DNA of 64,000 nt from an uncultured Gammaproteobacteria bacterium (GTDB lineage Bacteria; Patescibacteriota; Patescibacteriia; Patescibacteriales; UBA12465). A program made the position numbers and the translations under genes. Positions 3,852 to 49,155 of the stretch are shown here, one piece after another. Numbering within the stretch: the stretch's first letter is position 1; each line of letters opens with the position of its first letter. Under the pieces are notes generated by a model that had not been told where the DNA came from, made no database searches, and saw nothing but the letters and a program-made list of their open reading frames with translations. The stretch spans positions 517 through 64,516 of the forward strand of contig CAYXNV010000003.1 in assembly GCA_964466835.1 (NCBI GenBank). Direction: 5' to 3'.

Positions 3852-3963
3852 ATTAATACTTGGTATTAATTATTGAATTATGTTATAATATTAACAAACT
3901 TCTCTAAGTTTTTCAATTAATTTTATTTAAACAAGCTAAGCAAAAAGTTAGCTTTTTAATCCT

Positions 3964-4941
3964 ATGTTTTCTTATCGTTCTATCTTAAAACAAGCCTGGA
4001 ACATCACCTGGAAAAATAAATATCTTTGGTTTTTCGGGCTTTTTGCTTCTCTGGCCGCTGCTAGTGGTTCAGTTGAGCACCAAATTTTGACCCAAAACTT
4101 AAATCAAAATTTAGTTGATGGTTCCTACGCTCATCTAGGAAGTATACTCCTATTAGGTGACCTAATGAACAATCTATGGATTGGTTTAGGAGCTTTATTT
4201 AGTCAAAATATTTGGATTATTATTAATGCCCTAACTTTACTGTTAGTTACCCTAACTTTAGTGGTTGCCTTCATCTGGCTAGCAATTAGTTCTCAAGTAG
4301 CTATTGTTGATCATGTTAAAAAAATTGTAAATTCTAAAAGAAAAGCCTCAGTTCTAAGTGTTCGAGAGGGTTTAACAATTGGCAATCAGCATTTTTGGCC
4401 AGTCTTAGGACTAAATGTTCTAATCAAAATTCTAATTGGAATTGCGTTCTTCCTCATTAGCATACCTCTGCTTTTCATGTTCCTAAATGATACTGCTGTT
4501 TTAATAGTTGTCTATACCATCCTCTTTGTTATTTTCATGCCAATTGCTGTTTCCCTGTCATTAATGATTAAATATGCCATTGCCTATAAAGTCTTAAATA
4601 AAAAATCTTTTATTGTTTCAATAGAAAAAGGCTGGGAATTATTTAGTAAAAATTGGTTGATAAGTTTAGAGATGGCAATTCTCCTTTTTATTATTAACTT
4701 TCTCTTTGGTATTGGAACACTGTTGATAATCTCCCTAATACTATTCCCTCTATTCTTGTTTGGAATTATGTTTAAATTGGCTTGGCTAACCACCCTAATG
4801 TTATTCTTGGGTCTAATTGTTGTAATTTTAATCGGAGCCTTTTTAACCACCTTTCAAACAGCTACCTGGACTAATCTTTTTCTTCATTTAGACAGCAAGA
4901 AAGGATTAGCTAAATTAGAAAGATTATTTAGAAAAAAATAA
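3964..4941 (+). CDS. polytopic membrane protein, function unknown
   Basis: 325-aa ORF with about 6-7 hydrophobic segments. Its stop is 9 nt before the pilB-like start, so the two are probably co-transcribed. Confidence 0.5.
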   Translation: MFSYRSILKQAWNITWKNKYLWFFGLFASLAAASGSVEHQILTQNLNQNLVDGSYAHLGSILLLGDLMNNLWIGLGALFSQNIWIIINALTLLLVTLTLVVAFIWLAISSQVAIVDHVKKIVNSKRKASVLSVREGLTIGNQHFWPVLGLNVLIKILIGIAFFLISIPLLFMFLNDTAVLIVVYTILFVIFMPIAVSLSLMIKYAIAYKVLNKKSFIVSIEKGWELFSKNWLISLEMAILLFIINFLFGIGTLLIISLILFPLFLFGIMFKLAWLTTLMLFLGLIVVILIGAFLTTFQTATWTNLFLHLDSKKGLAKLERLFRKK

Positions 4942-4950
4942 AAAAGTACT

Positions 4951-7900
4951 ATGAGTGATGATTTAGCTTCAATTGAAAACCTTATTAATCCGACCGATGA
5001 CGAGGAAAGCGTCACCGGTCGTTTTGCTAAAAAACAAACAGAGATAAAGAATAAGGAAATTGAAAAACAAACAGAAAAACAGGCAAAAAAACTCAGTTTA
5101 GACTATGTTAATCTATTTGGTTTTCCAATTAGCCCTGAGGCCTTGTCTCTATTGCAAGAAAAAAGAGCTCGAGAACTTCAAGCAGTTTGTTTCTTCTATA
5201 ATGGTGAAAGCATTCGCATGGCTTGCCTCAATCCAAGTCCTGAAATAAAAGATGAACTTAATCGTTTAGGCGAACAATATTTTGCTGATACTAAATTATA
5301 TTTAGTTTCAAAAAATAGCCTAGAAGCTGCTTTGGATATTTATAAAAGTATCCCCAAGGTTAAACGTTATGAAAGCGGAGTAGAAATTAGTGAAGAAAAT
5401 TTAGAAAAGTTTAAAGAAGATATTGCCAGTTATCAAAGTTTAAATGAAAAAATAAATGAAGTTAATATTACTGATGTTGTTACCCTAATGTTAGCCACTG
5501 CTATCAAGGTTGGAGCAAGTGATATCCATATTGAGGCAGAAGAGGAGCAAGTAGTTATTAGAATGCGTTTAGACGGTGTCCTTCAGGAAGCGGCTCGAAT
5601 TAGTAAAGAAAAGTGGGATAAAATAATCGCTCGCTTAAAAATTCTTTCTCGAGTAAAAATTAATATTGAAAATAAACCCCAAGATGGTCGTTATACTATT
5701 TATCTAAAAGATAGAAAAATAGATGTTCGCTGTTCTTTCTTGCCAACTGCCTACGGCGAGAGTGTAGTAATGCGTTTATTAGACTCCACTGCTATTGCCT
5801 TAGAATTAAAAAAATTAGGTGTTCGCCCAGAAATGATGCCAGCTCTAGAAAGAGAAATTATTAAACCAAATGGTATGATTCTAACCACTGGTCCAACTGG
5901 TTCTGGTAAAACCACCACTCTCTATGCGGTAATTAATCGTTTAAATAAACCAGGCACGAAAATAATTACTTTAGAAAATCCGATTGAATATCAATTGCCG
6001 GGAATTAATCAAAGCCAAGTTGATGTTAAGCGTGGCTATACTTTTTCCGATGGTTTGCGTTCAATTCTTCGTCAAGATCCAAATATAGTAATGGTTGGTG
6101 AAATTAGAGATTTGGAAACAGCTGAAATTGCTATTCAGGCTGCTTTAACAGGACATTTAGTTCTATCAACTCTGCACACTAATGATGCAGCTGGTGTTAT
6201 TCCTCGGTTAATTGATATTGGAGTAAAACCATATTTCTTAGTGCCAGCGATTAATGCTGTAGTTGGTCAACGGTTAATAAGAAAGCTTTGTCCTCATTGT
6301 CGAGAAGAACATAAATTAGATTCCGAAGAAGAAGAACAAGTAAATAAAATCCTAGCTGTTATTTCTCCTAAAACTGGGATTGATATTCCAGCCGAGCTAC
6401 CAAAAATGTATAAAGCTAGTAAGGGCTGTGAAAAATGTAGTTTTATTGGCTATAAAGGACGAACTGGTATTTATGAAATCTTCACCATGGATGATGATTT
6501 AAAACAATTAACAATTGATAAAGCTCCTTCATTTAAAATCCTTCAACAAGCAATTGAGAATGGCATGATTACTATGCTTCAAGATGGCGTCCTCAAAACC
6601 ATGGAAGGAGTTACTTCCCTAGATGAAGTCTATCGAGTAATTGGCAACTTTGATTATGTTAATGAATTATATGATATTGTAATTTCTCAAACCATTGGCC
6701 GAGGAGTGAAACTAAGAAAAGAAGAAATAGAAAAAGCTAAAGAATTAAGTAAAGATATTAATAAGATTGCTAGTGCTGCCAAAGAAATACCAACCACTGA
6801 ATTAATTAATCTAGTAATGGCTCTGGCCGTGGTGAGTGATGCTGGTGATATTCATATCGAACCAACCGAAGAAGATGTTAAAGTTCGTTTTAGAATTGAT
6901 GGTGTTCTTCATGACATTCTTAACCTACCTAAAACTAGTTATTTGCCATTATTATCAGAAGTAAAAATATTAGCTGGAGCCGCTACCAATATTAAACGAG
7001 CTACCTTTGATGGTCGCTTCACTATTGGGTTAGAAAAGAATAAAATTGACTGTCGTCTTTCAATTATCACTGGTGGTCACGGGGAAACGATTGTTGTTCG
7101 GTTGCTATCAACAACAGCTGCTAAGTTGGACATGCAAAAACTAGGCATTACATCTGTTAATTATGATGCCCTACAAAAAGCAATGAAAAAAACTAGGGGT
7201 ATTATCATTACCACTGGTCCAACTGGTTCTGGTAAAACTACTACCTTATATAGTATTTTAAATAAATTAAATAAACCTGATACCAAAATAATTACCGTTG
7301 AAGATCCCATTGAATATGAACTGCCCGGAATCATGCAAACTCAAATTGATGAAAAACGAGGTTATACTTTTGTTTCTGCTATGCGTTCTTTGTTGCGTCA
7401 AAATCCAAATATAATGATGATTGGAGAAATTCGTGATGCTGAAACCGCTAAAGTTTCAATTGAAGCTTCTATGACTGGCCACTTAGTTTTATCTACTATT
7501 CATGCTAATAGTGCCGCCGGAGCAATTTCTCGTTTCGCTGGCCTAGGTCTAGAAAGACAGGCTCTAGCTAATGCGATTGAGTTCACTATTGGCCAACGTT
7601 TAGTTCGCCGAATTTGTCCTCATTGTAAAAAAGAAACTGAACCTAATCCAGAAACCCTAAAGAAAGCTCAAGAAGCTTTGGGGTTAATAAATAATTCAAA
7701 GATAAAAATTCCAGACAAACTCACTTTCTACAAGGGAGAGGGTTGTGATAAATGTAATAGTATTGGCTATAAAGGGCGTCTTGGTTTGTATGAAACTATT
7801 GCCATGACTCCTGAAATTCAAAAATTAATTCAAAAGGAAGATGTAACTGATCATGATATCGAACAAGCAGCAATTGCTAACGGTATGGTGACGATGCTTC

Positions 7901-7965
7901 AAGATGGCATTCTCAAGGCTTTAGCTGGAGAAACCAGTCTTGAAGAAATCTTCAGAGTAGTTTAA
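4951..7965 (+). CDS. pilB: PilB/GspE-family type IV pilus (T2SS-like) assembly ATPase with two complete ATPase modules fused in tandem
   Basis: 1004-aa uninterrupted ORF. It has an N-terminal T2SSE_N/MshEN-like segment followed by two copies of the same module. Each copy has ASDIHIE/AGDIHIE, Walker A GPTGSGKTTT, an Asp box (ENPIEY / EDPIEY), Walker B (VGEIRD / IGEIRD), a His box (GHLVLSTLH / GHLVLSTIH) and a CPHC...C-KC tetracysteine. Confidence 0.9.
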   Translation: MSDDLASIENLINPTDDEESVTGRFAKKQTEIKNKEIEKQTEKQAKKLSLDYVNLFGFPISPEALSLLQEKRARELQAVCFFYNGESIRMACLNPSPEIKDELNRLGEQYFADTKLYLVSKNSLEAALDIYKSIPKVKRYESGVEISEENLEKFKEDIASYQSLNEKINEVNITDVVTLMLATAIKVGASDIHIEAEEEQVVIRMRLDGVLQEAARISKEKWDKIIARLKILSRVKINIENKPQDGRYTIYLKDRKIDVRCSFLPTAYGESVVMRLLDSTAIALELKKLGVRPEMMPALEREIIKPNGMILTTGPTGSGKTTTLYAVINRLNKPGTKIITLENPIEYQLPGINQSQVDVKRGYTFSDGLRSILRQDPNIVMVGEIRDLETAEIAIQAALTGHLVLSTLHTNDAAGVIPRLIDIGVKPYFLVPAINAVVGQRLIRKLCPHCREEHKLDSEEEEQVNKILAVISPKTGIDIPAELPKMYKASKGCEKCSFIGYKGRTGIYEIFTMDDDLKQLTIDKAPSFKILQQAIENGMITMLQDGVLKTMEGVTSLDEVYRVIGNFDYVNELYDIVISQTIGRGVKLRKEEIEKAKELSKDINKIASAAKEIPTTELINLVMALAVVSDAGDIHIEPTEEDVKVRFRIDGVLHDILNLPKTSYLPLLSEVKILAGAATNIKRATFDGRFTIGLEKNKIDCRLSIITGGHGETIVVRLLSTTAAKLDMQKLGITSVNYDALQKAMKKTRGIIITTGPTGSGKTTTLYSILNKLNKPDTKIITVEDPIEYELPGIMQTQIDEKRGYTFVSAMRSLLRQNPNIMMIGEIRDAETAKVSIEASMTGHLVLSTIHANSAAGAISRFAGLGLERQALANAIEFTIGQRLVRRICPHCKKETEPNPETLKKAQEALGLINNSKIKIPDKLTFYKGEGCDKCNSIGYKGRLGLYETIAMTPEIQKLIQKEDVTDHDIEQAAIANGMVTMLQDGILKALAGETSLEEIFRVV

Positions 7966-7972
7966 TAGATTT

Positions 7973-8548
7973 ATGATTAATAAAAAATTTTTAGAAAATC
8001 TAAAACAAGATTATAAAGCTAATGAAAGCGAACGCCGACAAATAATTAGTGCTGCTAATAGTATTTTATTTGATTCCAAAAAAACCATTTTCATTCTTCA
8101 GCGCCAAGATGAAAAAGAGGCTGAAAAACGTCTTAAAGAAATAGAAAAGAACTTAAAAACTCTAGAAAAACGTTTTAGTTTTAAACGTTTAAACAAAGAA
8201 GGCGCCTATCGAGCCGCCGCTGAAGAGTATGTTGAAGCTAAAACTTTCTTTCTAGTTATTAAAAATAAAAAAATTGATGCAGTGAAAAACATTACCCTGG
8301 ATTATGAAGCCTATCTCGGTGGAATTTGTGATTTAATTGGTGAACTGGTTCGCTATTCCACTAATCAGGCCGCTAAAGGAAAATTTGCCATTGTCGCTAA
8401 AAATAAAAAGATTGCTGAAGATATCATGGCTCATCTAATTGATTTTGACATGACTGGCTATCTCCGCACTAAATATGATCAGGCTAAAGGGCATCTCCGT
8501 AAACTTGAACAAATGGCTTATGAAATAAAATTAAAAACTAAGAAATAG
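7973..8548 (+). CDS. translin-family protein (putative nucleic-acid binding)
   Basis: 191-aa ORF. The C-terminal half aligns by eye with human translin: DYEAYLGGICDLIGELVRYS against DVEDYLSGVLILASELSRLS, and LRTKYDQAKGHLRKLEQMAYEI against LRKRYDGLKYDVKKVEEVVYDL. Confidence 0.65.
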   Translation: MINKKFLENLKQDYKANESERRQIISAANSILFDSKKTIFILQRQDEKEAEKRLKEIEKNLKTLEKRFSFKRLNKEGAYRAAAEEYVEAKTFFLVIKNKKIDAVKNITLDYEAYLGGICDLIGELVRYSTNQAAKGKFAIVAKNKKIAEDIMAHLIDFDMTGYLRTKYDQAKGHLRKLEQMAYEIKLKTKK

Positions 8549-8552
8549 AGCC

Positions 8553-9050
8553 ATGCTAATTGCAATTATTTCTGATATCCATGACAATGTCGTTAATCTA
8601 GAAAAATGTTTAAAATGGTGCCAAGAAAATAAAGTTGAAAAACTAATCTGCTGTGGGGATATTACTAATTTAGAAACTGTAAATATTCTCGCCCGACAAT
8701 TTCCCGGCGAGATTTTTATTGCCGAGGGTAATTGCAGGCTCTATGAAGAGTCTGATCTAAATCATTTTAAAAATATTACCTATTGTGGTGAAATTGGCAT
8801 CAAAGAGGAAGATAGTATTAGGATTGGTTTTTGTCACGAAAAAAGAAAAATCATTAAAATGTTAGAGATTAGCCATGATTCTTTAGATTTTATCTTTTAC
8901 GGTCATAGCCACAAACCCTGGATTGAAAAGAAAAATAATATTACTATTGCTAACCCGGGTAATATTGCCGGAGTCTGGAATCAAGCCACCTTTGCTGTGC
9001 TTGATACTACTAATAAAAAGTTAGAATTAAAAATTTTAGCCGAACTATAA
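8553..9050 (+). CDS. metallophosphoesterase (YfcE/MJ0936-like)
   Basis: 165-aa ORF with the calcineurin-like motifs ISDIHDN, CCGDI and GHSH. Confidence 0.75.
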   Translation: MLIAIISDIHDNVVNLEKCLKWCQENKVEKLICCGDITNLETVNILARQFPGEIFIAEGNCRLYEESDLNHFKNITYCGEIGIKEEDSIRIGFCHEKRKIIKMLEISHDSLDFIFYGHSHKPWIEKKNNITIANPGNIAGVWNQATFAVLDTTNKKLELKILAEL

Positions 9051-9054
9051 TTAT

Positions 9055-9837
9055 ATGAACAACGAAAAAGAAAAAAGAATAATGATAAAAATGATAAAAC
9101 AGGCAGGAAAATCTCTCTTAAATGATTACCAAACTTTTAAGCGTTCTCAAGCTCACCTTAAAACCAAAAGAGATCTGGTCACTCAAGCTGACCTTAACAG
9201 TGAAAAAATAATTATTAAAACAATCAAGAAAAACTTTCCTGATCATCAAATCCTATCCGAAGAAGCGGGTCTAGACGAAAAAAAATCTGATTATTTCTGG
9301 ATCATAGACCCTCTAGATGGCACCACTAACTTTTATATTCATAATCCAATTTGGTCAGTAGCAATTGCCTTGGCCTATAAAAATAAAGTCATTCTAGGAG
9401 CTGTTTATATTCCTCTCCAAAATGAATTATTTTTAGCTGAAAAAGGTAGGGGTGCTTATTTAAATGGCAAAAAAATAAAAGTATCTCAAGGATCTGTAAA
9501 AAAAATAAATACTTTTTGTCATGGTAGTGGCACTAAACATCTAAAGAAAGCTCTTAAATACTATACCTATCAAAAACTTAATTCCTTTGATTGTCGTCAA
9601 TTAGGTAGCGCTGCAACTGAGTTGGCCTATGTTGCTTCAGGGCGAGTAGAATCCATCCTAATCCCTGGAGCTAAAGCCTGGGATGTAGCAGCTGGCTCAC
9701 TTTTAGTTACTGAGGCTGGTGGAAAAGTAACTAACTTCAAAAATAAGCCTTGGACAATAAAAGAAGAAAATATTTTAGCAGCTAATAAAAAATCTCATCC
9801 TCAGATAATAAAGATAATTAAAAAAATAAAAATATAA
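9055..9837 (+). CDS. inositol monophosphatase family protein (SuhB/IMPase-like)
   Basis: 260-aa ORF with the signature WIIDPLDGTTNF, a later WDVAAG motif and an EE metal-ligand region (LSEEAG). Confidence 0.85.
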   Translation: MNNEKEKRIMIKMIKQAGKSLLNDYQTFKRSQAHLKTKRDLVTQADLNSEKIIIKTIKKNFPDHQILSEEAGLDEKKSDYFWIIDPLDGTTNFYIHNPIWSVAIALAYKNKVILGAVYIPLQNELFLAEKGRGAYLNGKKIKVSQGSVKKINTFCHGSGTKHLKKALKYYTYQKLNSFDCRQLGSAATELAYVASGRVESILIPGAKAWDVAAGSLLVTEAGGKVTNFKNKPWTIKEENILAANKKSHPQIIKIIKKIKI

Positions 9838-37845: not shown

Positions 37846-40560
37846 ATGTATCTCGATAAATTAGAAGTACAAGGATTTAAATCTTTCGCCAACAAAAATA
37901 AGTTGGTTTTTTCTGGACTTATCAACGGTGGAAAAAGAGGACTAACCGCTATTGTTGGCCCCAACGGTTCTGGAAAATCCAATGTGGCCGATGCTATTCG
38001 TTGGGGTTTAGGAGAGCAAAGTATAAAAACTCTTCGGGGCAAAAAAGGTGAAGATGTAATTTTTTCTGGATCAGACAAAAAGAGTAAACTGGGTATGGCC
38101 GAGGTATCTTTGATTTTAAATAATAACGGTAAAGTAAAAAATAAAAGTGATTTTCCAGAAGCAATTGAAAAAGAAAGCGATCTTGATCAAGTTATTTCCA
38201 ATTGTCCAGAAATAACAATTACTCGTCGACTATTTCGTAATGGTGATAGTGAATATCTTCTAAACGGTAATCGAGTTCGTCTTAATGACATTCAATTGCT
38301 TTTGGCTAAAGCTAATTTCGGTCAAAAAACTTACAGTGTTATTGGTCAGGGAATGGTAGAAAACTTTCTCAATACTAGTGCGGCTGAACGAAAAGATTTT
38401 TTTGATGAAGCAACTGGAGTAAAACAGTTTCAAATTAAACGTGACTCTGCTTTAAATAAGTTAGAAAGTAGTTATGAAAATCTCCAACAAGTAGAAATGC
38501 TATTATCAGAAATTAGCCCTCGTCTCAGAAGCTTAACCCGTCAAGTTAACAAATTAAATAGGCGCAGTGAGATTGAAACTGAATTAAAAACCAATCAATT
38601 AGACTATTACCACAACATCTGGAAGGATATCAGCGATAAACTTGATGATTTCAATGCTCGTTATTTAGAACGAGAAAAAATTAAAATTGAAAAAGAGAAA
38701 AAACTAAAAAAACTAAATGAAGATTTAAATAAACTTAAAACAACTGATAACTATCAAGAAATTAATGAGCTAAAACCACGCCTACAAGAATTATATAATT
38801 CAAAAAATCAATTATTAAAACAATCAGCTAAAATCCAAGCTGAATTAGAAATAAATCTAGAATCTCAAGGTCAATTTGATCTATCCTGGCTTAACAGTAA
38901 ACAAGCTGATTTAATGGCTGAATTAGAAAAAACTGATAAAGAGCTAAATACCCTTAAAACTAGCCTAAATAACGATGATGAGGATAAACTAAAGACTGAA
39001 TTAGTTGATATTAATAAAAGAATACAAACTACCAGTGAAAAACTAAAAATGATTAACCAGGATGATTCAAGTCCTCAATACCAAAAACAAAGCCAAGAAG
39101 AAATCAAAAATATCATAAATGAATTTTTATCTCATTTAGATAACATTGAAACTGAAACTGATCTGGACAAAATCAAAAATCTACTCCAGGAAGTTAAATC
39201 AAACTTCAAAAATAAGATTAAAAACTTCTTAAGCGCTGAAGATTCAAAAAAATTAGAAGAGGTTAGAGAAACTCAAGCGGAAATAATTAATCTTAATGAA
39301 AAAAAACAAGAAATAATTGAACGCCTCAACAATCATCAGTTAAAATTTTCTGGGCAGAAAGAAAAATTAAAATTATTAACTGAAAAAAAGAACGATTTAG
39401 AAAATGATTTGGAAGAGATAAAAAATAAATTATTTAAAGAGTCAGGATCCCAGGAGACAAAAACTGTTAGAGAAGAAAAAATTAAACTTGATGATAAAAC
39501 CAAGGAGTTGAATCAAAAAATAAATGAATTAGAAAATAAATTAGAAAAATTAAATCAAGCCAAGGAGGAGGAAAAGAATTTAATCTTTGATTATCAAAAG
39601 AATCTTCAAGATTTACAAAATGAAATTAACATTCTCAACACTGAATTAAACGAATTAAAAATTAATGCTACTCGCCAAGAAACTAAATTAGAAGATCTAG
39701 AAATTAATATTAGAAATGATGAACTTAGCCTAACTGAAATTAAGGATCATGTTATGCAGGCGAAAGAATTTGATCCAGAAAAAATTCAAAATAAAATTAT
39801 TAGTTTAAAAAATCAATTAGAACTTATTGGCGGTATTGATCCGGAAACAGAAAAAGAATATAAAGAAACTAAAGAACGTTTTGATTTTTTAAATGGGCAA
39901 ACAACTGATTTAAATAAAACTATAAAATCATTAGACCAAATTATTCAAGAATTAGACGCGACTATCAAGACTCGCTTTGATAAAGAATTTAAGGTCATTT
40001 CTGAAAAGTTTAACGATTACTTTAAAATTCTCTTTAACGGTGGTGATGCTAAGATAGCTCGCATCATGATTGAAGATTTGGAAAAAAATAATGGAGATCA
40101 AAAAAATAATGATGAAATAGCCCTAAACCCTGAAGAAGAGAAGAAAAAAGAAACTAATGAGCAATTGAAAAAAATAAAATATTTAAAAAAATATAATGCG
40201 GTTGGTTTAGCAGGAATTGATATTCAAGCTATTCCTCCAGGGAAAAAGATTAAATCAGTTGCTATGCTTTCAGGTGGAGAAAGAGCCTTAACTGCTATTG
40301 CTTTAATTTGCGCTATTATTAGCGCAAATCCCTCACCATTTGTTGTTCTAGACGAAGTCGATGCTGCTCTAGATGAAGCTAATTCTGAACGTTTTGCCAA
40401 GATTCTTGATGATCTATCTCATAAAACTCAATTCATCATTGTCACCCATAACCGAGCTTCGATGCGTCGAGCTAGTATATTATATGGGGTAACAATGGAA
40501 TCTGATGGTGTTAGTCGTTTACTAAGTGTTAAGCTGGATGAAATTAAAGAAAAGGACTAA
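37846..40560 (+). CDS. smc: SMC-family chromosome segregation ATPase, short form with no recognisable hinge
   Basis: 904-aa ORF. The N-terminal head (LEVQGFKSF...IVGPNGSGKSNVADAIRWGLGEQS) and C-terminal head (LSGGERALTAIAL...VLDEVDAALDEAN...IIVTHN) are canonical. The interior is continuous K/E/N-rich coiled coil. Confidence 0.85.
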   Translation: MYLDKLEVQGFKSFANKNKLVFSGLINGGKRGLTAIVGPNGSGKSNVADAIRWGLGEQSIKTLRGKKGEDVIFSGSDKKSKLGMAEVSLILNNNGKVKNKSDFPEAIEKESDLDQVISNCPEITITRRLFRNGDSEYLLNGNRVRLNDIQLLLAKANFGQKTYSVIGQGMVENFLNTSAAERKDFFDEATGVKQFQIKRDSALNKLESSYENLQQVEMLLSEISPRLRSLTRQVNKLNRRSEIETELKTNQLDYYHNIWKDISDKLDDFNARYLEREKIKIEKEKKLKKLNEDLNKLKTTDNYQEINELKPRLQELYNSKNQLLKQSAKIQAELEINLESQGQFDLSWLNSKQADLMAELEKTDKELNTLKTSLNNDDEDKLKTELVDINKRIQTTSEKLKMINQDDSSPQYQKQSQEEIKNIINEFLSHLDNIETETDLDKIKNLLQEVKSNFKNKIKNFLSAEDSKKLEEVRETQAEIINLNEKKQEIIERLNNHQLKFSGQKEKLKLLTEKKNDLENDLEEIKNKLFKESGSQETKTVREEKIKLDDKTKELNQKINELENKLEKLNQAKEEEKNLIFDYQKNLQDLQNEINILNTELNELKINATRQETKLEDLEINIRNDELSLTEIKDHVMQAKEFDPEKIQNKIISLKNQLELIGGIDPETEKEYKETKERFDFLNGQTTDLNKTIKSLDQIIQELDATIKTRFDKEFKVISEKFNDYFKILFNGGDAKIARIMIEDLEKNNGDQKNNDEIALNPEEEKKKETNEQLKKIKYLKKYNAVGLAGIDIQAIPPGKKIKSVAMLSGGERALTAIALICAIISANPSPFVVLDEVDAALDEANSERFAKILDDLSHKTQFIIVTHNRASMRRASILYGVTMESDGVSRLLSVKLDEIKEKD

Positions 40561-42068: not shown

Positions 42069-42536
42069 ATGAAAAAAAGAATTGTCTTTTTAATACTGCT
42101 ATCAACTCTATTATTACTTAGTTACAATATTGTTCAAGCCCAAGGAATATTACCCGAAGCACATGGTGATGAATGTATAATCAATGGAGTCCCAGTAGCA
42201 GATAAATCTGAATGTGGAAATTATTCATTAGATGACATAATGCGACTAGCAGTTAACGCCTCTGGCTTGATTTTGGGTTTAGTTGGATCCTTGGCTTTAG
42301 TGATGTTTATCTATGGTGGTATTTTAATGATGACTTCAGGCGGAACAACTACCTCAAGCGATGGGAAGAGTAAAATAAATCAAGGCAAAAAAGTAATTAT
42401 GGCCGCTATTATTGGTTTAATAATTGTTTTCTGTAGTTATTTGATTATAAACTTTGTTTTAGGATCTCTAGGAATAGAATGGAAAGGAGAAATTGAAAAA
42501 ATGACATACAATAGCAGTCAAGAAATTAAAGTCTAA
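42069..42536 (+). CDS. VirB2/TrbC-like pilin-family membrane protein (solitary paralog)
   Basis: 155-aa ORF with the same architecture as the 46662-49155 array: a signal peptide ending VQAQ, a TM segment, the loop GGILMMTSGGTTTSSDGKSKINQGKK, then a second TM segment. Confidence 0.6.
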   Translation: MKKRIVFLILLSTLLLLSYNIVQAQGILPEAHGDECIINGVPVADKSECGNYSLDDIMRLAVNASGLILGLVGSLALVMFIYGGILMMTSGGTTTSSDGKSKINQGKKVIMAAIIGLIIVFCSYLIINFVLGSLGIEWKGEIEKMTYNSSQEIKV

Positions 42537-46661: not shown

Positions 46662-47048
46662 ATGAAAAACTTTTATAAATATCTTATTTCGTTCGCTATT
46701 ATTTGCCTAGTAGTTACGTCTTTGGCAGCTGCTCCGGCTTTAGCTCAGAACGATCCTTTCGGAATTAACTCAGTTAATAATGGTTTGAACAATAGTTTGG
46801 CTAGTGGTGATCCTAGAACTATTGTGGGACGAATCATTAACGTTGCTCTAAGCTTCTTAGGTGTAGTAGCTGTAGTAATCATCTTATTAGGTGGTTTCAA
46901 ATGGATGACAGCTGCTGGAAATGAAGAAAAAGTAACTGAAGCTAAAAAGCTATTAGGGGCTGGAATTATTGGTTTAGTAATCATTTTAGCCGCCTGGGCA
47001 CTAGCAGGATTTATCATTGATCAAATTTACGGCGCAACTAATGGTTAG
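46662..47048 (+). CDS. VirB2/TrbC-like pilin-family protein, array copy 1
   Basis: 128-aa ORF with strong SD AAGGTGGTG and a signal peptide ending APALAQ. The core reads TM-GGFKWMTAAGNEEKVTEAKK-TM. Confidence 0.7.
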   Translation: MKNFYKYLISFAIICLVVTSLAAAPALAQNDPFGINSVNNGLNNSLASGDPRTIVGRIINVALSFLGVVAVVIILLGGFKWMTAAGNEEKVTEAKKLLGAGIIGLVIILAAWALAGFIIDQIYGATNG

Positions 47049-47077
47049 TACTATATAGGTGATTCTCATTTATGAGA

Positions 47078-47132
47078 GTCACTGCTTTAAACGCAAACTA
47101 CTTTGTGTTTAAAGCAGTGACTAATATTTTTT
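47078..47132 (+). terminator. strong intrinsic terminator between pilin copy 1 and copy 2
   Basis: GTCACTGCTTTAAAC (47078-47092) pairs perfectly with GTTTAAAGCAGTGAC (47107-47121), followed by TAATATTTTTT. Confidence 0.75.
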
Positions 47133-47134
47133 CT

Positions 47135-47521
47135 ATGAAAAAGAAAATTGTTTTTATTTCTCTCTTATTTTTACTATCCTTTGCTTTATTAATCCCAACC
47201 ACTAATGCTCAAACTGCTGATCCCACTTTAAACGGATTAAACTTAACAGCTGATCAAGTTGATGCTTTTGATACTGGTGGTGTTTATGATACATTTTTAC
47301 AAACTCGACTAGGAACAATCGTTGGGGTAGTATTATCTTTTGTCGGTGTTCTTTTTCTAGTATTAGTAATTTATGCTGGTATTAGCTGGATGACTGCTAA
47401 TGGCAATGAACAACAAGTAAAGAAAGCTAGAGATTTAATAATTAATTCTATAATTGGCGCTATAATCGTTTTTGCTGCCTATGCCATTACTTCCTTTGTT
47501 GGCAACCAGATTTTAAAATAA
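47135..47521 (+). CDS. VirB2/TrbC-like pilin-family protein, array copy 2
   Basis: The start MKKKIVFISLL lies at 47135. The track start at 47072 would read through the terminator hairpin. The signal peptide ends TTNAQ and the core is GISWMTANGNEQQVKKAR. Confidence 0.65.
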   Translation: MKKKIVFISLLFLLSFALLIPTTNAQTADPTLNGLNLTADQVDAFDTGGVYDTFLQTRLGTIVGVVLSFVGVLFLVLVIYAGISWMTANGNEQQVKKARDLIINSIIGAIIVFAAYAITSFVGNQILK

Positions 47522-47928
47522 TGAAAAGTAAAATTGGACGAAAATTAATTATTGGTTTAATAGGGGCAATTTTTGCCTTTTCTTTTTATGGTATAGCCTC
47601 AGCTCAAACTACTGGTGGCGGAACCTATGATTTTAACAATCAAAGTGGCCTAGAAATTACTGCTGATGGAGCTGGTTATACTCAAGAAATTAAAGAAGTT
47701 ACTATTGAAGAGCGTGTTAGTAGAATTATTAACACTGTCTTGCTAATATTGGGCGTCTTATTTTTAGTCTTAATAATGTATGCTGGAATTACTTGGATGA
47801 CAGCCTTTGGTAACGAAGAAAAAGTGGGGAGAGCTGTCCAGATCCTTACTGAAGCAATAGTAGGATTATTTGTAGTGTTTGCCGCCTATGCTCTTAGCTG
47901 GTTTATATTAGAATATTTTTGGCAATAA
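47521..47928 (+). CDS. VirB2/TrbC-like pilin-family protein, array copy 3
   Basis: The start overlaps the copy 2 stop (TAATG). The signal peptide ends IASAQ and the core is GITWMTAFGNEEKVGRA. Confidence 0.65.
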   Translation: MKSKIGRKLIIGLIGAIFAFSFYGIASAQTTGGGTYDFNNQSGLEITADGAGYTQEIKEVTIEERVSRIINTVLLILGVLFLVLIMYAGITWMTAFGNEEKVGRAVQILTEAIVGLFVVFAAYALSWFILEYFWQ

Positions 47929-47930
47929 TT

Positions 47931-48344
47931 ATGAAAAAAAGAAATCTAATTATATTTATATTAACTATTTGTTTTCTATTAGTGGGCACAGTAGCTATGG
48001 CCGGATTAAATGAAGCTTTTGACCAAGATAATATAAATTTAGTAGCTGAACCAACCTATGATACAGATGAAACTTCTAAATCTGGTTCAATTGATAATGT
48101 TGTTGCCACAATAATTAGATTGGTTATATCAGTGCTAGGCTTAATATTCATGCTAATAATTTTCTTAGCAGCTGATCTATGGATGAAGGCTAATGGCAAT
48201 CCAGATAAGGTTCTAAAAGCTAAAAAAATGATTAGTCAGTCTTTAATTGGTTTAAGTTTTGTCTTGATCGCTTATGCCCTAGCTTATATCTTGACCCTTA
48301 TTTTCTCTACTGATCAATTAGGTGGAATAAATTTACTTAAATAA
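47931..48344 (+). CDS. VirB2/TrbC-like pilin-family protein, array copy 4 (most divergent loop)
   Basis: The start MKKRNLIIF lies at 47931. The core is ADLWMKANGNPDKVLKAKK. Confidence 0.6.
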   Translation: MKKRNLIIFILTICFLLVGTVAMAGLNEAFDQDNINLVAEPTYDTDETSKSGSIDNVVATIIRLVISVLGLIFMLIIFLAADLWMKANGNPDKVLKAKKMISQSLIGLSFVLIAYALAYILTLIFSTDQLGGINLLK

Positions 48345-48347
48345 TAT

Positions 48348-48749
48348 ATGAAAAAAAACATTATCAAATTTACATTTATAATTATTCTACTTTCGTTAGT
48401 AATTACTCCTAGTCTAGCCCTAGCTCAAAATACAAACACTAGCGTGCCACTACTAGATAAATTAGAAAATGTCGGTACTCAAGATGGTGGTTATAACGCT
48501 GGAATTAGCCCTCCACAAATAATTGGTTTTATCATCGGTGCTTTTATCAACTTTCTAGGTCTAGCCTTTATCGTTCTAGTAATTGTAGCTGGTTATGGCT
48601 GGATGACAGCTGGAGGTAATGAGGAAAAAGTAAAGAAAGCAGCTACCACCTTGAAAGAAGCAACGATTGGTTTAGTTCTCTCAATTTCAGCTTGGGCTCT
48701 TTGGAACTTTGTCTTTGAAAGCTTGGTTCTTAAAGGCTCACCAACATAA
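48348..48749 (+). CDS. VirB2/TrbC-like pilin-family protein, array copy 5
   Basis: The signal peptide ends LALAQ and the core is GYGWMTAGGNEEKVKKAA. Confidence 0.65.
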   Translation: MKKNIIKFTFIIILLSLVITPSLALAQNTNTSVPLLDKLENVGTQDGGYNAGISPPQIIGFIIGAFINFLGLAFIVLVIVAGYGWMTAGGNEEKVKKAATTLKEATIGLVLSISAWALWNFVFESLVLKGSPT

Positions 48750-48753
48750 AAAT

Positions 48754-49155
48754 ATGAAAAAAACATTAATTATAATTATACTATTAATATTCTCACTAAT
48801 TATAGTTTCTCCTGTTTCAGCTCAATTAGTGGATACAAATGGTTTAAGCGAAATAAGTGAAGACGTTCGTAAATCAGCCAATCTAGGCACTACTACCTTA
48901 GAGATAGTAATAGCTAATGTAATTAAAACTGTTCTCGGTTTATTGTCAATTGTTTTCTTAATATTAATCCTTTCAGCTGGAATTAGATGGATGACTGCTG
49001 AAGGTAATGAAGAACAAGTAGCTAAAGCTCGGAAAACATTAAAGACAGCTATTATCGGATTGATAATTGTTCTGGCTGCTTATGCCATCACCTACTTCAT
49101 ATTTGCTAATCTGCCATTTAGTGGCGGAGAAGTTGGTGGAGTTGGTGGAACTTAA
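48754..49155 (+). CDS. VirB2/TrbC-like pilin-family protein, array copy 6
   Basis: The start MKKTLIIII lies at 48754. The signal peptide ends PVSAQ, the core is GIRWMTAEGNEEQVAKAR, and the tail is Gly-rich (GGEVGGVGGT). Confidence 0.65.
   Translation: MKKTLIIIILLIFSLIIVSPVSAQLVDTNGLSEISEDVRKSANLGTTTLEIVIANVIKTVLGLLSIVFLILILSAGIRWMTAEGNEEQVAKARKTLKTAIIGLIIVLAAYAITYFIFANLPFSGGEVGGVGGT

Follow-up and report, generated by a model that had tools for sequence, protein, structure and literature searches.

Two PilB/GspE-type ATPase modules in one chain: a conserved tandem motor candidate from Patescibacteria

Motors such as PilB, GspE and PilT, which drive pili, secretion and DNA uptake, are rings of six identical subunits, and the way these coordinate ATP turnover is still debated, both as to whether the cycle is C2, C3 or C6 and as to which sites fire together (bioRxiv 10.1101/082750). 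In an uncultured ultrasmall bacterium (Falkowbacteria, Patescibacteria), a gene in a 64,000-nucleotide (nt) stretch of contig CAYXNV010000003.1 (assembly GCA_964466835.1, positions 517 to 64,516 of the forward strand), referred to here as the window, raises the question of what such a motor becomes when two of its ATPase modules are covalently joined. The gene, an open reading frame (ORF) at 4951..7965 (+), encodes one chain of 1004 amino acids (aa) with two PilB/GspE-type modules. The preferred answer, given a probability of roughly 0.6, is that the product is a genuine tandem PilB/GspE ATPase that would form a ring of three chains and serve as the motor of a type IV filament. The two-module fusion is conserved across many related genomes and is rated as an apparently undescribed architecture in the known T2SSE superfamily; full-text literature searches turned up no account of a PilB/GspE ATPase in tandem or fused form.

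Layout and conservation of the two modules

The tandem gene is a single frame of 1004 codons without an internal stop, in a window whose G+C content is about 33%. Pfam T2SSE (PF00437) matches the product in two stretches (E = 3e-233), and MshEN/T2SSE_N (PF05157) is found at residues 49-129 with 28.3 bits against a cutoff of 23.1. The order along the chain is N1, N2 plus C-terminal domain (CTD), connector, and again N2 plus CTD, with N1 present once per chain and not once per module. This single-ORF layout is the one put forward in the original prediction, and it is kept across a conserved family. A linker between the modules exists as predicted, but its length is about 48 aa (residues 566-612) and not the ~55 aa first estimated. 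The parts of the gene are as follows.

4951..7965 (+): tandem two-module PilB/GspE-family ATPase, 1004 aa (uninterrupted ORF, Pfam, motifs, NCBIfam and structure matches)
4951..5355 (+): N-terminal tail and N1 (MshEN/T2SSE_N, residues ~46-135; Pfam PF05157 and alignment to 3jc8)
5464..6645 (+): module A, N2 172-300 and CTD 301-565 (motifs, family alignment); Walker A 314-322, Asp box ~341-347, Walker B GEIRD 383-387, His box 400-409, zinc cysteines 447/450/493/496
5884..5912 (+): P-loop coding tract of module A, 29 nt identical to 7210-7238
6646..6720 (+): inter-module connector, residues 566-590, NFDYVNELYDIVISQTIGRGVKLRK (pairwise identity, motif, predicted secondary structure)
6721..6786 (+): variable spacer, residues 591-612, homologous to the N1-N2 linker of module A
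6787..7962 (+): module B, N2 613-742 and CTD 743-1004 (motifs, family alignment); Walker A 756-764, Asp box ~783-789, Walker B GEIRD 825-829, His box 842-851, zinc cysteines 889/892/932/935
7210..7238 (+): P-loop coding tract of module B, 29 nt identical to 5884-5912

The Walker A sequence GPTGSGKTT starts at residues 314 and 756, GEIRD at 383 and 825, the His-box sequence TGHLVLST at 400 and 842, and the pattern CPHC...CxKC at 447/493 and 889/932; Asp boxes and N2 arginine motifs are found in modules A and B alike. Each motif that the original prediction had listed for both modules, from Walker A to CxxC...CxxC, was located in A and in B. Module A (143-565) and module B (585-1004) are 47% identical in protein sequence over 423 positions (E = 5e-139) and 59% identical in DNA.

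The sequence criteria tested place the tandem protein in the T2SSE superfamily and, within it, in the extension (PilB/GspE) class. The PF00437 match is accompanied by matches of each half to GspE, PilB and PilF structures (E = 1e-90 to 1e-103), and both modules carry Walker A, Asp box, Walker B and His box, which hardly vary across the family. The extension class is indicated by tetracysteine zinc sites in both CTDs, invariant in the family, and by N1, present once. The best NCBIfam models for both halves are GspE and PilB, with scores under the equivalog cut-offs: 491.4 bits (N1 plus module A) and 416.0 bits (module B) for PilB TIGR02538, cut-off 675.65, and 495.0 and 446.3 bits for GspE TIGR02533, cut-off 630.25. 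The PilT/PilU model TIGR01420 gives 179.9 and 154.9 bits (cut-off 319.1), and N1 and the zinc cysteines are present; VirB11/TrbB models give 40-60 bits against cut-offs of 250-304. The closest solved structures by sequence are Vibrio GspE, Thermus PilF, and Myxococcus and Geobacter PilB, and N1 plus module A aligns end to end with residues 13-558 of Myxococcus xanthus PilB (3jc8).

Conservation was assessed in an alignment of 20 Falkowbacteria-type members that are 73-85% identical to the window protein. K320/K762, E384/E826, H402 and H409/H851, all eight zinc cysteines, and the N2 arginines R204/R206/R247 and R646/R648/R689 (RxRxDG, DGR) are invariant in it, and the first of the His-box histidines in module B, H844, is retained by at least 90% of the sequences. 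The motifs are kept in most tandem representatives down to 39% identity. Among 120 family members, mean pairwise identity is 0.77 for N2 of module A and 0.78 for N2 of module B, 0.83 and 0.79 for the respective CTDs, and 0.62 for N1. Neither module appears to be under relaxed selection, because the N2 and CTD identities of A and B are equal; both are therefore under equal purifying selection, and both probably hydrolyse ATP. That one module might be a catalytically silent regulatory or scaffolding pseudo-ATPase has precedents among divergent tandem proteins: module A of P0137 carries GSGTTT, with the Walker A lysine lost, the zinc cysteines are lost from module B of P0131, and the RxRxDG motif is lost from module B of P0132. 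Against this, the window protein and the 20-sequence sample keep Lys, Glu, His, Arg and Cys in both modules, the two modules are equally conserved, and the apparent P-loop conversion described below would keep both sites identical, so that a silent module is very improbable here. The original prediction that neither module looks degenerate agrees with these data, and closer alignment did not reveal a dead module.

A word-indexed protein search, with clusters built at 90% identity, returned at least 120 protein clusters of 1003-1009 aa that are 73-100% identical to the window protein at 99-100% query coverage. Where present, cluster names are 'GspE/PulE family protein', 'type II/IV secretion system protein' or 'PilB', and the NCBI names are labelled Patescibacteria-group or Candidatus Falkowbacteria. 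A junction-specific probe found 80 loci from GTDB species representatives in which the whole junction is present at 58-82% identity, and informative titles among these are Falkowbacteria, Patescibacteria or Parcubacteria. The fused frame is intact, at 1003-1031 aa, in 74 of the 79 loci where the ATPase gene was detected, and the tandem gene is also found on a closed 977-kb chromosome (CP066698.1). Three of the five short calls (L015, L042, L078) are ORFs cut by contig ends. A further locus (L044 6696-10782) has an ATPase ORF of only 742 aa and a 796-nt gap after the membrane-protein gene, which may reflect a frameshift, a pseudogene or a local assembly error.

An assembly or annotation artefact, in which adjacent paralogues were wrongly joined or a tandem repeat was collapsed or expanded, has nothing in its favour beyond these few shorter ORFs. 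The DNA identity of 59% between the modules is too low for collapse or expansion in assembly, the frame is repeated in 74 species-level genomes from many groups and in the closed chromosome, and the junction peptide is strongly conserved. The probability left to an artefact is negligible; an assembly error or a recent tandem repeat was rejected on the 47% protein and 59% DNA identity together with the 74 intact loci. The survey of related genomes thus disposes of the concern, raised in the original prediction, that a missing stop or misassembly might have produced the fusion, which recurs in dozens of independent assemblies. A 390-aa protein holding module B only (P0144) was considered as a natural split version and rejected, because it is a fragment at the end of a contig with the same Translin and phosphoesterase genes after it.

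Two-module chains are rare in the wider superfamily. When 1.84 billion representatives (50% identity clusters) were scanned exhaustively with HMMER, 58,308 relatives were obtained at E <= 0.001, of which about 14 are two-module proteins of ~1000 aa and the rest are single-module. The two-module representatives, P0121-P0133 and P0137, were matched at 37-64% identity.

Many co-assembled metagenome-assembled genome (MAG) records titled 'uncultured Gammaproteobacteria bacterium' (L005, L006, L012, L015 and others) show Falkowbacteria-type synteny, and their titles look like mislabels. The gene order common to those records and to Falkowbacteria records is ArgRS, membrane protein, tandem ATPase, Translin, UvrA and PLD.

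Origin of the duplication and the shared P-loop tract

The sequence between the modules bears on how the tandem arose. Residues 585-614 align to the pre-N2 segment 143-172 of module A, and only about 19 aa of the linker (566-584) are therefore new sequence. The connector is predicted to form a helix at 568-581 followed by a short strand (AlphaFold2, AF2, model). Its mean pairwise identity among the 120 family members (residues 566-590) is 0.83, compared with 0.77-0.83 for the catalytic N2 and CTD domains, and that of the spacer at 591-612 is 0.39. Because its identity matches that of the catalytic cores, the connector is probably a constrained functional element. A motif, G-[DN]-x-x-Y-[IV]-x-x-[LM]-Y ... 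R-G, is visible in 14 of 17 divergent tandem representatives compared and is absent from the other three, P0127, P0128 and P0137.

In a neighbour-joining tree built with the modules separated, the Falkowbacteria-type A sequences and B sequences form separate clades, each with 100% bootstrap and never as sisters, which places the duplication before the Falkowbacteria-type radiation. In the best tree, 14 of the 17 tandem representatives have their module B in a single clade, with a bootstrap of 16%; a single origin of this main tandem group is independently supported by the connector motif common to 14 divergent representatives. The tandem thus appears to be the product of an old duplication of the pre-N2 linker, N2 and CTD of a canonical PilB-like gene. 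By alignment, N1 plus module A still has the look of an intact, ordinary PilB, and the identity of module B to module A has fallen to 47%.

In P0127, P0128 and P0137 the protein's own two modules are mutually closest (bootstrap 96, 100 and 83; identity 56%, 75% and 44%), a pattern that either independent duplications or extensive homogenisation might produce. Homogenisation could account for P0128 (L089 3226-6213), because it shares its divergent PolA-TsaE neighbours with the main-clade protein P0122; an independent re-duplication at that locus would be the other explanation. P0137 (L092 9001-12144) resembles the window protein in carrying two T2SSE modules in one chain, of 1047 aa. It differs in having an N-terminal T2SSF-like (PilC/GspF-like) domain, in the loss of the Walker A lysine from module A, in lacking the connector motif, and in its context of an ECF sigma factor, a sulfatase and BatA/MoxR in a different kind of bacterium. 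Its tandem is, as far as sequence can tell, of independent origin. The tandem design would then have evolved more than once, since P0137 comes from a different organism and its modules are mutually closest. The fusion of a platform domain to the motor in P0137, with the T2SSF-like domain ahead of two ATPase modules, is itself noteworthy.

The original prediction had pointed to 29 identical nucleotides at the two Walker A regions and had suggested conversion or codon constraint as the cause. The match between 5884-5912 and 7210-7238 is exact and is the maximal exact match between the modules. Nine identical residues encoded by nine identical codons have a probability of ~1e-4 under the codon usage of the window, so the identity is more than chance. 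A gene-wide conversion signal is absent from the window gene, in which the same codons are used at 111 of 195 identical residues against 99 expected. Modules A and B were also aligned by codon in 80 distinct genes, and same-codon frequency was compared within and between genomes. The gene-wide excess within genomes is +0.089, uniform, and attributable to genome-specific codon bias, and the excess in the Walker A block (residues 308-325) is +0.202; the difference is 0.114 (95% interval 0.090-0.138, genome resampling). The signal peaks at S318/S760, where the same codon is used at a frequency of 0.77 within genomes and 0.20 between them (excess 0.57), and it fades over about 4 codons on either side. 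At the conserved serines 262, 371 and 406 the excess is at most 0.14.

Serine codons of the TCN and AGY families are not interconvertible by one synonymous step. The P-loop serines of the two modules nevertheless use the same family in 72 of 74 genomes (37 AGY/AGY, 35 TCN/TCN, 2 discordant). Fitch reconstruction on the gene tree requires 13 changes of family for module A, 15 for module B and 16 for the joint state, and nearly every switch is therefore common to A and B. Because the P-loops co-vary despite at least 13 switches, recurrent intragenic conversion over a short tract (~30 nt) is the process that these patterns indicate, by which the two P-loop tracts would be repeatedly homogenised. 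The invariant TTGPTGSGKTTT peptide keeps the DNA of the two tracts nearly identical, which might give conversion its starting point. Codon bias was rejected as the source of the signal on the internal baseline (+0.09 against +0.20) and on the other serines, and gene-wide conversion on the 111 against 99 codons, with only the P-loop tract standing out. Of the causes first suggested, conversion therefore holds for the ~30-nt Walker A tract and does not extend to the rest of the modules, which have diverged to 47%. The P-loops would offer a clear natural case of concerted evolution over a short tract, between repeats that have otherwise diverged within one gene.

Oligomeric form, neighbouring genes and cellular role

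In PilB, GspE, PilT and FlaI, 'packing units' of N2D(n) and CTD(n+1) are the principal contact between chains, and PilB has been modelled as a C2-symmetric ring that acts on PilC (bioRxiv 10.1101/082750). Three tandem chains could form a six-module ring, or pseudo-hexamer, in which N2 of module B would pack in cis on the CTD of module A and N2 of module A would pack in trans on the module B CTD belonging to the neighbouring chain. The resulting ring would carry three N1 domains and not six, and its A and B sites would strictly alternate. A ring of three would be the simplest way for a tandem chain to satisfy the packing contacts. The maintenance of both modules as active fits this ring, because any C2-related pair of sites would comprise one A and one B. 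The ring would be the assembly motor of a type IV filament, either a pilus or a competence-type pseudopilus, in a cell without an outer membrane.

A stacked double ring, which the original prediction had named beside a trimer of dimers, is an unlikely but coherent alternative, in which six chains would place six A modules in one ring and six B modules in a second ring beneath, much as in the tandem ATPases KaiC, ClpB, p97 and NSF. The C-termini of the CTDs presumably all lie on one side of the GspE ring, to judge by GspE-Hcp1 fusions (4ksr, 4kss) in which Hcp1 comes after GspE, and a connector of 48 aa could span from there to a second ring. The helix of the conserved connector could serve as a spacer between rings, and the module clades are separately conserved, as expected if A-A and B-B interfaces evolve independently. 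A double ring of PilT and PilU also gives a precedent (bioRxiv 10.1101/2025.10.14.680967). On the other side, N1 is found only on module A, so that the B ring would sit away from the membrane platform, and an even-numbered homomeric ring easily becomes a ring of fused dimers. The AF2 monomer (pTM 0.41) favours neither arrangement. To our knowledge, no T2SSE-family protein makes a stacked ring from one chain.

If the ring of three is correct, opposite positions would be one A and one B, which would limit the workable symmetry models. A natural covalent dimer fixes subunit order and stoichiometry and could provide a handle on ring-motor coordination, since each class of site could be mutated separately in the native protein. 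In linked ClpX, covalent linkage of subunits was reportedly made artificially for mutating sites separately.

The tandem gene lies in an apparent operon, of which the other parts are listed below.

3860..3889 (+): candidate operon promoter, sigma-70-like TTGGTA-18-TATAAT with TG extension, the best such match (10 of 12 positions, by consensus only)
3964..4941 (+): 'TM325', a 325-aa all-helical polytopic membrane protein, ending 9 nt before the ATPase ATG
7973..8548 (+): Translin-family gene, probably co-transcribed (PF01997, E = 4.9e-19), 7 nt after the ATPase stop
8553..9050 (+): calcineurin-like metallophosphoesterase (Metallophos_2; Pfam), 4 nt after the Translin gene
9055..9837 (+): inositol-monophosphatase-family gene (Pfam), last of the apparent operon and present in only a subset of related loci

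The promoter-like site lies in the divergent intergenic region upstream of the membrane-protein gene, and no terminator-like site was found on the + strand between 3964 and 9837. On one side of the operon lie TyrRS and ArgRS, on the other UvrA and PLD. Translin and metallophosphoesterase genes were found in the majority of the 80 Falkowbacteria-type loci. Translin proteins bind nucleic acids and are known mainly from eukaryotes and archaea, and a conserved bacterial Translin beside a PilB-type motor is curious.

A membrane protein ending 9 nt upstream had been noted in the original prediction, and it corresponds to the multi-helix TM325 at 3964-4941. Its gene lies directly upstream on the same strand in 77 of the 80 loci, usually 0-20 nt from the ATPase gene, and the pairing holds in L053, L054 and L064 (a 4.7-kb contig), where other window neighbours were undetected. 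A TM325 homologue (hmmsearch E = 1.7e-54) is also encoded 15 nt upstream of P0142; this 584-aa ATPase has one module and is closer to module A than any other single-module relative. The TM325 family is small, with 430 clusters, all unnamed or hypothetical. No Pfam family is above threshold, with weak matches to DUF7544 and Choline_transpo only. The AF2 model is all-helical, with a mean predicted local distance difference test score (pLDDT) of 74 and a predicted template-modelling score (pTM) of 0.72. Its best Foldseek matches in the PDB are choline-transporter-like CTL1/Pns1 (E 0.04-0.1, TM-score 0.36-0.51), and none is below E = 0.001. PilC/GspF is not among the top 50 Foldseek PDB matches, which are CTL1/Pns1, CysZ and then chance-level; 11 orthologues gave no T2SSE- or T2SSF-related hit at E <= 1, and profile search found no relative in the PDB. 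TM325 as a cryptic PilC accordingly found no support, there being no T2SSF (PF00482) match and no PilC-like fold among those top 50. TM325 may instead be a lineage-specific membrane partner or anchor of the ATPase, and the two genes form a conserved pair of unknown function in Patescibacteria.

Pfam scans of the ORFs of the 64-kb window (33.7-40.6 kb read as translations) found no T2SSF/PilC, PilM/N/O, prepilin peptidase or N_methyl pilin, and no pilT or second T2SSE gene occurs in the window. A six-frame search of the window found no class III signal-peptide (prepilin) motif. The original statement that pilC, pilM-Q and prepilin peptidase are not adjacent was therefore borne out by both scans. 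Pilus genes are also absent beside the distant tandem genes, so it is homology that argues for the pilus role. On family membership, a role in type IV filament assembly is somewhat more probable than the alternatives taken together. Type IV pili have been described as widespread in these bacteria, in which PilQ, the outer-membrane secretin, was not detected (PMC6744442). One single-module relative that falls in the module B clade, P0188, has an N_methyl pilin-like gene after it. Surface appendages of Patescibacteria are central to their episymbiotic lifestyle.

The distant tandem loci L084, L085/L086, L087 and L089 have DNA repair and recombination neighbours (RuvB, RuvC, YebC, PolA, UvrD and a DHH-family gene). 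P0122 adjoins PolA-TsaE-DHH and RuvB, P0124 Archease and RuvB-YebC-RuvC, P0129 a CCA-adding enzyme and RuvC, and P0128 PolA-TsaE. Such neighbourhoods may simply have been inherited as synteny in small genomes, or they may hint at a function. UvrA just downstream of the window operon recalls them.

The same neighbourhoods invite a different view of the ATPase, in which it would not be a pilus motor and would form, with TM325 and possibly the Translin and the phosphoesterase, a separate membrane machine, for example for uptake or scavenging of nucleic acids. The TM325/ATPase pair persists where neighbours change (L053, L054) and beside a single-module relative, the spacing to the Translin and metallophosphoesterase genes is operon-like, the distant tandem genes adjoin RuvB, RuvC, PolA, UvrD and a DHH-family gene and not pilus genes, and TM325 is not PilC-like. 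However, every motif is that of PilB/GspE extension ATPases, whose only role known to us is filament assembly through PilC/GspF. Repair neighbours are common in genomes of ~1 Mb and may be inherited synteny, the Translin and phosphoesterase genes are absent beside distant tandem genes, and the pilin-like gene noted above follows a relative in the module B clade. A separate machine is accordingly judged doubtful, a little more so than the stacked ring. Held with the same reserve is its fuller form, an unrecognised membrane machine of Patescibacteria in which the tandem ATPase and TM325 would work as a trimeric A-B-A-B-A-B ring without a PilC platform, perhaps in uptake of nucleic acids or other macromolecules coupled to the Translin and phosphoesterase. 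If that were true, the motor would be a natural example of C3-type symmetry in a family whose motors are regarded as C2-symmetric.

Several points weigh against a ring of three that drives a type IV filament. Neither half reaches the NCBIfam equivalog cut-off for PilB or for GspE, and the deep module phylogeny is poorly resolved, as the 16% bootstrap of the 14-member module B clade illustrates. The AF2 monomer model of the ATPase (pLDDT 70.9, pTM 0.41) gives no confident geometry between the modules, and the ~48-aa connector is long enough for a ring or a stack. No pilC, pilM/N/O, pilD, pilT or class III pilin gene was found in the window or beside distant tandem genes. TM325 has no detectable similarity to PilC/GspF and is absent beside the distant tandem genes. 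Much of the evidence from adjacency counts for little, because most other neighbours in the Falkowbacteria-type loci are conserved too.

Two other regions of the window were noted. Six consecutive small paralogues (128-149 aa) lie at 46662-49155 (+), with a seventh ~4 kb upstream at 42069-42536 (+). They have a signal peptide and a C-terminal two-helix hairpin with the motif W-M-T-A-x-G-N-E-E-K-V, and the five tested against Pfam exceed the threshold for T4SS_pilin (PF18895; E = 2.7e-11 to 3e-6). Arrays of such VirB2-like pilins have already been described in Patescibacteria (PMC12102498), and no VirB4, VirB6 or VirB11 was found among the window ORFs scanned. The array at 46.6-49.2 kb is not supported as a substrate of the ATPase, since it is ~39 kb away and belongs to the PF18895 family, and the modules are PilB/GspE- and not VirB11-type. 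At 37846-40560 (+), in the part of the window with the lowest GC (0.286) and the highest AT skew, a 904-aa coiled-coil ORF looks SMC/RecN-like by eye, with an N-terminal GPNGSGKS P-loop and a C-terminal LSGGE signature.

Comparison with known systems

The first 565 residues of the tandem protein have the N1-N2-CTD order of PilB (M. xanthus 3jc8; Geobacter metallireducens 5tsg/5tsh) and of Vibrio GspE (4pht, 1p9r, 4ksr), and the motifs and zinc site of these proteins are found in both tandem modules. Unlike them, the tandem protein has a second N2 plus CTD fused through a conserved connector and one N1 for two ATPase sites, and its gene lies outside any pil or gsp operon.

In Acinetobacter baylyi, PilB and TfpB are two diverged extension ATPases that have been proposed to cooperate, possibly within one complex or in mixed hexamers (PMC8213720; PMC11656802). 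These are encoded by separate genes and their stoichiometry is unknown, whereas fusion fixes both the 1:1 ratio and the adjacency in the window protein. A double ATPase ring of PilT and PilU has been reported in situ in the competence pilus machine of Vibrio cholerae (bioRxiv 10.1101/2025.10.14.680967). The likeness lies in two T2SSE-superfamily motors on one machine; the difference is that PilT and PilU are of the retraction class, without N1 or zinc site, and are separate chains.

Ring P-loop ATPases with internal duplication that form stacked rings include KaiC, with CI and CII, and ClpB, p97 and NSF, with D1 and D2. They belong to other folds or families (the KaiC family and AAA+), and their relation to the tandem ATPase is functional analogy and not family homology. 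Nearer to hand, Thermus thermophilus PilF (6f8l, 5it5) is a PilB-family protein enlarged by internal repetition and is among the closest relatives of both modules. We take PilF to repeat its N-terminal GSPII/N1-type domains and to keep a single ATPase module, whereas the window protein repeats the ATPase module instead.

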